DNA of 64,000 nt from Escherichia coli. GTDB taxonomy: Bacteria; Pseudomonadota; Gammaproteobacteria; Enterobacterales; Enterobacteriaceae. The notes under the pieces are model-generated. The model was not told the DNA's origin. It did no database searches and saw only the letters and a list, made by a program, of their open reading frames with translations. A program made the translations under genes and the position numbers. Positions 60,179 to 61,474 of the stretch are shown here, piece by piece. The first letter of the stretch is position 1. Every line of letters begins with the position of its first letter. The stretch lies in NCBI RefSeq assembly GCF_030384885.1, contig NZ_CP128613.1; one strand, 5' to 3'.

Positions 60179-61255
60179 ATGAAATTGACGCTGAAAAACC
60201 TTAGCATGGCGATCATGATGAGTGGAATGATCATGGGAAGCAGTGCAATGGCGGCGGATAGCAACGAAAAAATAGTCATCGCCCATCGCGGTGCCAGTGG
60301 ATATTTACCGGAGCATACGCTGCCAGCAAAAGCGATGGCTTATGCGCAGGGAGCGGATTATCTGGAACAGGATTTGGTGATGACGAAGGATGATCATCTG
60401 GTCGTTCTGCATGACCACTATCTTGACCGGGTAACCGATGTCGCCGATCGTTTCCCGGATCGGGCGCGTAAAGATGGCCGTTACTACGCGATAGATTTTA
60501 CGCTGGATGAAATTAAGTCGCTGAAATTTACCGAAGGTTTCGATATTGAAAACGGTAAAAAAGTGCAGACTTATCCGGGGCGTTTCCCGATGGGTAAGTC
60601 TGACTTCCGGGTGCACACCTTTGAAGAAGAGATTGAATTTGTTCAGGGGTTAAATCACTCCACTGGGAAAAATATCGGTATCTATCCAGAAATTAAAGCG
60701 CCGTGGTTCCATCATCAGGAAGGGAAGGATATTGCGGCAAAAACGCTGGAAGTGCTGAAGAAATATGGCTACAGCGGTAAGGACGACAAAGTTTATTTGC
60801 AATGTTTTGATGTTGATGAACTGAAGCGCATTAAAAATGAGCTGGAACCCAAAATGGGCATGGACCTCAATCTGGTACAGTTGATTGCCTATACCGACTG
60901 GAATGAAACGCAGCAGAAACAGCCGGACGGAAGCTGGGTTAATTACAGCTATGACTGGATGTTCAAGCCGGGCGCTATGAAACAGGTAGCGGAATATGCT
61001 GATGGCATTGGTCCGGATTACCATATGGTGATTGAGGAGACATCGCAGCCGGGTAATATCAAGCTTACCGGAATGGTAAAAGATGCACAGCAGAATAAGC
61101 TGGTGGTGCATCCTTATACCGTGCGGGCCGACAAGCTGCCGGAATATGCCACCGATGTGAATCAGTTGTATGATGCTCTGTATAACAAAGCGGGTGTAAA
61201 TGGGCTGTTTACTGATTTCCCTGATAAGGCAGTAAAATTCCTTAATAAAGAGTAA
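60179..61255 (+). CDS. glpQ: Periplasmic glycerophosphodiester phosphodiesterase GlpQ
   Basis: About 358 aa from MKLTLKNLSMAIMMSGMIMGSSAMA (signal peptide); GDPD motif region (IAHRGASGYLPEHT). Confidence 0.9.
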   Translation: MKLTLKNLSMAIMMSGMIMGSSAMAADSNEKIVIAHRGASGYLPEHTLPAKAMAYAQGADYLEQDLVMTKDDHLVVLHDHYLDRVTDVADRFPDRARKDGRYYAIDFTLDEIKSLKFTEGFDIENGKKVQTYPGRFPMGKSDFRVHTFEEEIEFVQGLNHSTGKNIGIYPEIKAPWFHHQEGKDIAAKTLEVLKKYGYSGKDDKVYLQCFDVDELKRIKNELEPKMGMDLNLVQLIAYTDWNETQQKQPDGSWVNYSYDWMFKPGAMKQVAEYADGIGPDYHMVIEETSQPGNIKLTGMVKDAQQNKLVVHPYTVRADKLPEYATDVNQLYDALYNKAGVNGLFTDFPDKAVKFLNKE

Positions 61256-61262
61256 TGCTACT

Positions 61263-61291
61263 GCAGGATGGCGTTTATGCGCCATCCTCTG
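61263..61291. terminator. Stem-loop after glpQ (GGATGGCG-N6-CGCCATCC)
   Basis: 8-bp inverted repeat 8 nt after the glpQ stop; no strong T-tract. Confidence 0.4.
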
Positions 61292-61474
61292 CTAAAGCGA
61301 AATAATGCTACTACCGGTTATTCTTTTCATTAACGGGTGCATCCTGTAAAAAGATGCCAACATAATTTTCGTAAAACTCATTCGTTAAAAAAGCTAACAC
61401 TGGGCATTGTTATTCTTTAAACAGTATGAATAGATCTCAATAATAAATTGTAATGCAGTTTATACTGTAAAGTA

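Follow-up and report, generated by a model that had tools for sequence, protein, structure and literature searches.

A ten-base direct repeat around the glpQ stem-loop of Escherichia coli and the boundary of a strain-variable orphan-gene islet

Immediately downstream of glpQ, the window (the whole 64-kb stretch of Escherichia coli DNA that was analysed) contains the ten-base sequence TAATGCTACT exactly twice, both times on the + strand and with a start-to-start distance of 50 nt. A GC-rich hairpin is located between the two copies, and AT-rich DNA with an orphan gene begins in the same place, which raises the question of whether the repeat is the trace left by an insertion. A sequence-only reading had proposed just this, describing two copies about 50 bp apart on either side of the hairpin, a description that is accurate (Table 1), and taking them as a small duplication that could mark an old insertion or recombination junction. 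The repeat is at a genuine insertion boundary, yet it is not an insertion scar; it is either a leftover of diverged homology or a coincidence. It matters little beyond this locus, having an ordinary explanation at a genuine junction, and it warns against taking every short repeat next to an indel boundary for the scar of the insertion.

Table 1. Positions of the features in the window
Feature	Position	Strand	Remarks
glpQ (glycerophosphodiester phosphodiesterase)	60179..61255	+	RefSeq annotation of the identical record NZ_CP027579.1; list of open reading frames
Repeat copy 1	61253..61262	+	TAATGCTACT; core sequence, in genomes with and without the islet
Conserved GC-rich stem-loop	61263..61292	.	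Core arms 61265-61273 and 61280-61288; GCAG/CTGC lengthens the stem
Strain-variable islet, 1,717 bp	61289..63005	.	Genome comparison and composition profile; centre about 30% G+C
U2, possible decayed second glpQ 3' tip, stop codon and terminator region	61293..61347	+	Gapped alignment
Repeat copy 2	61303..61312	+	TAATGCTACT; inside the islet, 14 nt from its left edge
Orphan gene, 356 codons	61475..62545	-	Restricted to E. coli, no recognisable family
Decayed inaA 3' end and inaA-yfaE spacer, about 190 nt	62818..63005	+	tblastn, blastn and local alignment; reaches the right edge of the islet
LysR-type regulator 3' fragment, like the K-12 yfaH pseudogene	63011..63253	-	Annotation and alignment

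The insertion boundary and the empty site

Comparison of 5,426 complete E. coli genomes defines, to the base, the boundary of a common presence/absence polymorphism. The orphan-gene islet is present in about 1,050 of these genomes (about 19%), O157:H7 included, and is absent from K-12 and from about 80% of E. coli genomes. Its left edge is located directly 3' of the hairpin, about 4,250 genomes matching the junction query just to position 61288, the last base of the 3' arm. In these genomes the empty site reads ...GAGTAATG(C/T)TACTGCAGGATGGCGTTCATGCGCCATCCT|GTCTCA(T/C)ATCAAATTTTTCC..., that is, copy 1, the hairpin and the 3' end of the LysR-type gene, which in empty-site genomes is the convergent neighbour of glpQ. 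The sequence-only reading had asked whether one copy plus the hairpin is the empty-site sequence, and this is the case. The left end of the islet (61289-61474, of which CTAAAGMGAAATAATGYTACT is an example stretch) and the orphan reading frame occur in 1,052 genomes each, always at this locus; genomes keeping both copies in the absence of the reading frame, the arrangement that the same reading had named as contrary to it, were not seen among the 5,426.

E. whittamii and Escherichia sp. E1V33 have the empty arrangement too, and the layout in Citrobacter is likewise glpQ, hairpin and convergent LysR gene. It follows that copy 1 and the hairpin belong to the ancestral sequence, and that the islet, with copy 2 inside it, was inserted later. 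The window is 100% identical in this region to E. coli strain 2013C-4282 (NZ_CP027579.1), while other E. coli are about 94% identical across it. At the opposite end, the junction reads ..CAATCTCAT|GTCTCAC.. and has no similarity to the 10-mer. A near-tandem 7-mer is present at this right junction (TCTCATG TCTCACA, 62998-63011), and the common TCTCA could be microhomology used in the right-hand crossover.

The boundary between core and islet does fall between the two copies, and to this extent the proposal of an insertion or recombination junction stands; the proposal that the insertion itself made the duplication is unsupported. In a target-site duplication left by a transposon or MITE, or in an attachment-site core used by an integrase-driven element, the copies would be expected to flank the inserted segment. 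Here they flank the ancestral hairpin, the right junction is without the 10-mer, and in nine other islet-bearing genomes the copies differ from each other. Local alignment of the two islet ends against shuffles gave no direct or inverted repeat beyond chance; terminal inverted repeats are absent, with an inverted-repeat score equal to the shuffle mean (p 0.46). Neither a transposase nor an integrase-like reading frame is present in the islet, whose sole long reading frame has no Pfam family, and an Rfam scan of 60900-63500 gave no match to the tRNA family. No similarity of the islet to phage was found in 50,697 phage records; the one match among plasmid records is to an E. coli record of 4.9 Mb, the size of a chromosome, which was presumably labelled a plasmid in error.

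A mobile-element origin of the repeat does draw on the position of a short direct repeat next to an indel boundary, in a spacer where IS1 and IS66-family elements are known to have inserted in other strains. True target-site duplications at this locus do not look like this: in strain 2017.02.04CC, IS1 lies in the glpQ stop region and is abutted at both ends by the 8-bp duplication TAAAGAGT, and ISEc22 in yfaH of strain 12690 is abutted at both ends by the 8-bp duplication AGTTGTTC. They share with the present repeat that they are short direct repeats by an insertion boundary in the glpQ-yfaH spacer; however, both copies of the 10-mer are at one end of the inserted DNA, one of them within it, with neither transposase nor inverted repeats. 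A scar of this type is highly improbable as the origin of the 10-mer, and the analysis rules out delivery of the islet by a transposon, a phage or an integrase.

Insertion sequences have struck the spacer and the islet repeatedly in other strains. IS1 is found inside the orphan gene as well, and also between the left end of the islet and the orphan gene. A literature search for yfaH together with glpQ found no papers.

The stem-loop between the two copies

The hairpin contains the perfect inverted repeat AGGATGGCG / CGCCATCCT and has a stem of 9 to 12 bp. Folded as RNA it gives -22.9 kcal/mol, with a z-score of -4.1 against shuffles. It is placed between two convergent genes, glpQ and the LysR-type gene, and E. 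whittamii, Escherichia sp. E1V33 and Citrobacter have a hairpin in this position too, with a different sequence in Citrobacter. In the allele of phylogroup B2, the pairing is preserved via two compensatory changes.

Stem-loops shared by convergent genes are known in the form of bidirectional intrinsic terminators, and the sequence-only reading had called this one the glpQ terminator hairpin. The very stable hairpin is there, GC-rich and just past the stop codon as an intrinsic terminator would have it. It lies 9 nt past the stop of glpQ and some 20 nt away from the convergent LysR-type stop, and like a bidirectional terminator it is conserved in position across Escherichia and Citrobacter, with its pairing held by the compensatory changes. 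It differs in having no U-tract on either strand. A terminator scan did not call the hairpin on either strand, and no T-run adjoins the stem. On the + strand the bases after the stem are CTGCTAAAG when the islet is present and GTCTCATATC at the empty site; on the - strand they are GCAGTAGCATTAC. Since no U-tract adjoins it, canonical intrinsic termination at this hairpin is not established, and the name of terminator, which on the strength of stem and position is a reasonable one, is to be taken as provisional. The hairpin may also be a structure that stabilises the 3' end, or may act in a cofactor-dependent manner.

As a GC-rich palindrome right after a stop codon, the hairpin also resembles the REP/BIME palindromes. 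It differs from them in lacking an Rfam match and in being a single copy, conserved in position between orthologous loci, rather than one of a dispersed family. The Rfam scan (60900-63500, E <= 10) gave neither an RNA family nor a small RNA of the 3'-UTR; its one match, to a snoRNA, is elsewhere and at chance level.

The two ends of the islet and the origin of the repeat

The right end of the islet is a relic of inaA, the core gene that comes next on the downstream side. The peptide FSQLNKYISPIHKVGQNQVKTNYYA, encoded at 62862-62936, has 14 identities in 25 residues to InaA (tblastn, E 3e-6), and the DNA is 72% identical over 76 nt to inaA of other Escherichia (blastn). In local alignment the relic scores 39 to 41, about 7.5 standard deviations above a genomic null distribution with a mean of 16.3, a standard deviation of 3.2 and a maximum of 28.5. 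The similarity is significant and colinear with the end of a neighbouring core gene, as is expected of a segmental relic; a full-length inaA homologue of the relic's kind would end in ...FSQLNKYISPIHKVGQNQVKTNYYAW. The inaA-yfaE spacer contained in the relic is REP-like, and the real inaA is located about 430 bp further on. Elsewhere in the islet, similarity of the inner non-coding parts to the glpQ-inaA intergenic region of phylogroup B2 is within the null distribution, comparison of the islet centre with the InaA, LysR, GlpQ and YfaE proteins gave noise except for the C-terminal relic of InaA, and the small reading frames at 62700-62945 have no Pfam family.

Because the right end is a relic of a core gene, the question arises of whether the left end is one too. 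Alignment of the segment U2 to the empty-site sequence made up of glpQ tip, stop codon, hairpin and CCTGT gives 36 identities in 45 aligned bases, with 4 gaps. The colinear blocks are, in order, TAAAG, a gap of 3 nt in frame ahead of the stop codon, TAATGCTACT, CnGG, TTCAT (corresponding to the loop) and CATCCTGT, where the alignment ends; this is the point at which the stem of the empty site ends as well. Depending on the allele, the alignment has a shuffle p of 0.002 to 0.02, and it is in the top 0.2%, approximately, of all 75-nt windows in the 64 kb. A second exact 10-mer, GGTGCATCCT, is common to the glpQ 3' end and the first 57 nt of the islet, two common 10-mers having a p of about 0.001, although this second one is not colinear with the order in glpQ. 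U2 could form a weak hairpin (ACCGGTTA/TAACGGGT, 61313-61338), which is not significant (z -0.56). Judged from these alignments, homology of the left end to the glpQ flank is plausible but not proven.

The allele with the longest match, TAAAGAG..TAATGTTACT (strains AST217, EcPF15 and GN25), appears to be derived and not ancestral. A donor species for the left end was sought among 80 enterobacterial glpQ flanks and none emerged, the two flanks at the top, both from Yersinia, being there by chance. Neither the 5,426 E. coli genomes nor the 80 best-matching glpQ loci listed by a scan of one representative genome per species contained a donor arrangement, in the form of glpQ with U2 directly behind it or of a diverged inaA of full length.

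The same alignment could have arisen in the recipient itself, if replication slippage had duplicated in tandem a unit of about 50 nt made up of stop codon, hairpin and spacer, the second unit decaying before foreign DNA was inserted. Such a duplication would explain why the two units are disposed head to tail, both beginning with the 10-mer and both finishing with CATCCT. It would not explain the 14-nt spacer CTGCTAAAGCGAAA, which is not present in the empty-site sequence, and if a duplicate younger than the species had decayed uniformly, wholly different stems would hardly be expected beside an intact 10-mer. A duplication without the islet, the intermediate to be expected, is not present in any genome compared, and we regard an origin by slippage as improbable.

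The weight of the 10-mer itself can be judged from its alleles and from chance expectation. Copy 1 contains the glpQ stop codon TAA as its first three bases (61253-61255) and has the variants TAATGTTACT, TAATGCTATT and TAATGCTGCTACT, with TAACGTTATT and TAAATTAACT in other lineages. In the nine other islet-bearing genomes that were read, copy 1 has the form TAATGCTATT or TAATGCTGCTACT and copy 2 the form TAATGCTACT or TAATGTTACT; among ten such genomes the copies are identical at 10/10 positions in this strain only, the other nine having 8-9/10 or a 3-nt indel. This particular 10-mer is expected 0.04 times, a figure calculated post hoc. Exact 10-mer direct repeats within 60 nt form 15 distinct pairs in the window against 3.3 in Markov-1 shuffles, so that close pairs are commonplace in real sequence. 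When the 66 nt ending just past the junction are compared with the next 62 nt, an equally good match is obtained in 0.75% of shuffles. The repeat is real, mildly unusual locally and unremarkable at the scale of the window, and there is no sign of a function for it.

The main rival to relic homology, less likely than not but by no means negligible, is pure coincidence: the islet would be foreign AT-rich DNA whose left end has by chance a 10-mer in common with the core flank 50 nt away. The abundance of close pairs in the window is in keeping with this, as are the full identity in a single strain and the choice of the repeat for testing after it had been seen; the extended alignment, too, is equalled or beaten by 2 of about 80 unrelated enterobacterial glpQ flanks, the Yersinia pair. 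Chance accounts less well for the low junction-specific probability, for the two 10-mers in common with the glpQ 3' end and for the additional colinear blocks in register (TAAAG, TTCAT and CATCCTGT). Moreover, the opposite end of the islet is independently an inaA relic, which gives relic homology at the left end a higher prior.

We somewhat favour the explanation that the islet is a fragment of a diverged glpQ-to-yfaE interval, illegitimately inserted, with the 10-mer as the stretch of relic homology that has survived best. Copy 1 with the hairpin is ancestral core sequence, made up of the glpQ stop codon, the seven bases after it and the stem-loop before the convergent LysR-type gene. The 1.7-kb islet, with copy 2, would have been inserted directly 3' of this stem-loop by illegitimate recombination involving neither a transposon nor an integrase. 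Its right-hand 190 nt or so are the decayed 3' end of inaA with the downstream spacer, its left-hand 55 nt or so would most simply be a decayed glpQ tip, stop codon and terminator, and the AT-rich orphan gene is located between the two ends. The 10-mer would then be the best-kept run of an old homology, about 65-80% identical, between the resident and the imported glpQ flank. The boundary, the ancestry of the hairpin, the location of copy 2, the lack of a target-site duplication and the inaA relic are shown by the data, whereas homology rather than coincidental similarity at the left end is inferred, as is the mode of insertion.

The decayed copies of flanking genes at the ends of the islet, a clear one of inaA and a possible one of glpQ, speak for capture of this interval in a diverged form and against import mediated by a phage or integrase. 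Tentatively, and with somewhat less than even confidence, the source may have been a second, deeply diverged glpQ-yfaE haplotype of Escherichia, carrying a glpQ tip and terminator, the orphan gene and inaA, from which a 1.7-kb piece was captured beside the resident copy. If so, the islet preserves both ends of a lost allele together with an orphan gene restricted to E. coli, and illustrates how an orphan gene can end up between relics of native genes.

The strain-specific islets that distinguish O157:H7 from K-12 are known as O-islands. The present islet resembles them in being small and AT-rich, in carrying an orphan gene, in its presence in O157:H7 and absence from K-12, and in its location in an intergenic hot spot between conserved genes. 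It differs in that its ends carry decayed flanking core genes, clearly so for the inaA 3' end and possibly for the glpQ tip. Decayed neighbouring core genes at one end, possibly both, are a modest clue to the origin of small orphan-gene islets at the spacers of convergent genes.

The orphan gene and the glpQ-to-yfaE interval

The orphan protein has no Pfam or PADLOC family. Among 5.8 billion proteins, homologues were found only in E. coli, with at least 82% identity, and a full HMMER scan of 1.84 billion representative proteins gave no remote relatives. The reading frame is intact in all eight alleles examined, with a dN/dS of 0.4 to 0.7. Compared over 60179-62545 with four sequences of typical E. 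coli, this strain has a dS of 0.08-0.13 in the orphan gene and of 0.33-0.36 in the adjacent glpQ, a neutral divergence in the islet about three times below that of its flank. Lower dS implies that the islet has a much more recent ancestor across lineages than the flank has, and suggests that it moved between lineages, spreading by recombination.

In many strains, the orphan gene is tagged as frameshifted in RefSeq, the reason being that residues 181-212, approximately, differ from the O157 allele by a compensated double frameshift. A metagenome contig (L097, 5850-6731) contains an internal piece of the orphan gene, 88% identical, joined to Bacteroidetes-like genes. Its protein (P0023) was considered as an alternative context of the orphan gene and rejected, the contig being chimeric: the fusion is most likely a chimera of assembly and not a second genomic context.

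The interval from glpQ to yfaE is a hot spot of gene content. It is empty in E. albertii, K. indica and some Citrobacter, contains only inaA in E. coli of phylogroup B2, and contains a LysR-MFS arrangement in FUJ80154; in K-12, as in this window, it consists of the yfaH fragment and inaA. Based on the spacing to the inaA 3' end, the arrangement in E. whittamii and Escherichia sp. E1V33 is probably LysR-MFS-inaA. The islet forms an independent layer of presence and absence over these gene arrangements.

The LysR-type gene is full length in FUJ80154 and O157 and is reduced to the yfaH fragment in K-12 and in this window. Truncation of this gene by the islet was considered and rejected: the normal stop codon is located 3' of the insertion point, and the longer reading frame of FUJ80154 results from a 1-nt deletion. 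This deletion, in an A3T5 run near the end of the gene (L004, 1876-1900), shifts the frame, and the frameshifted gene reads into the glpQ hairpin, with its stop codon in the hairpin loop.
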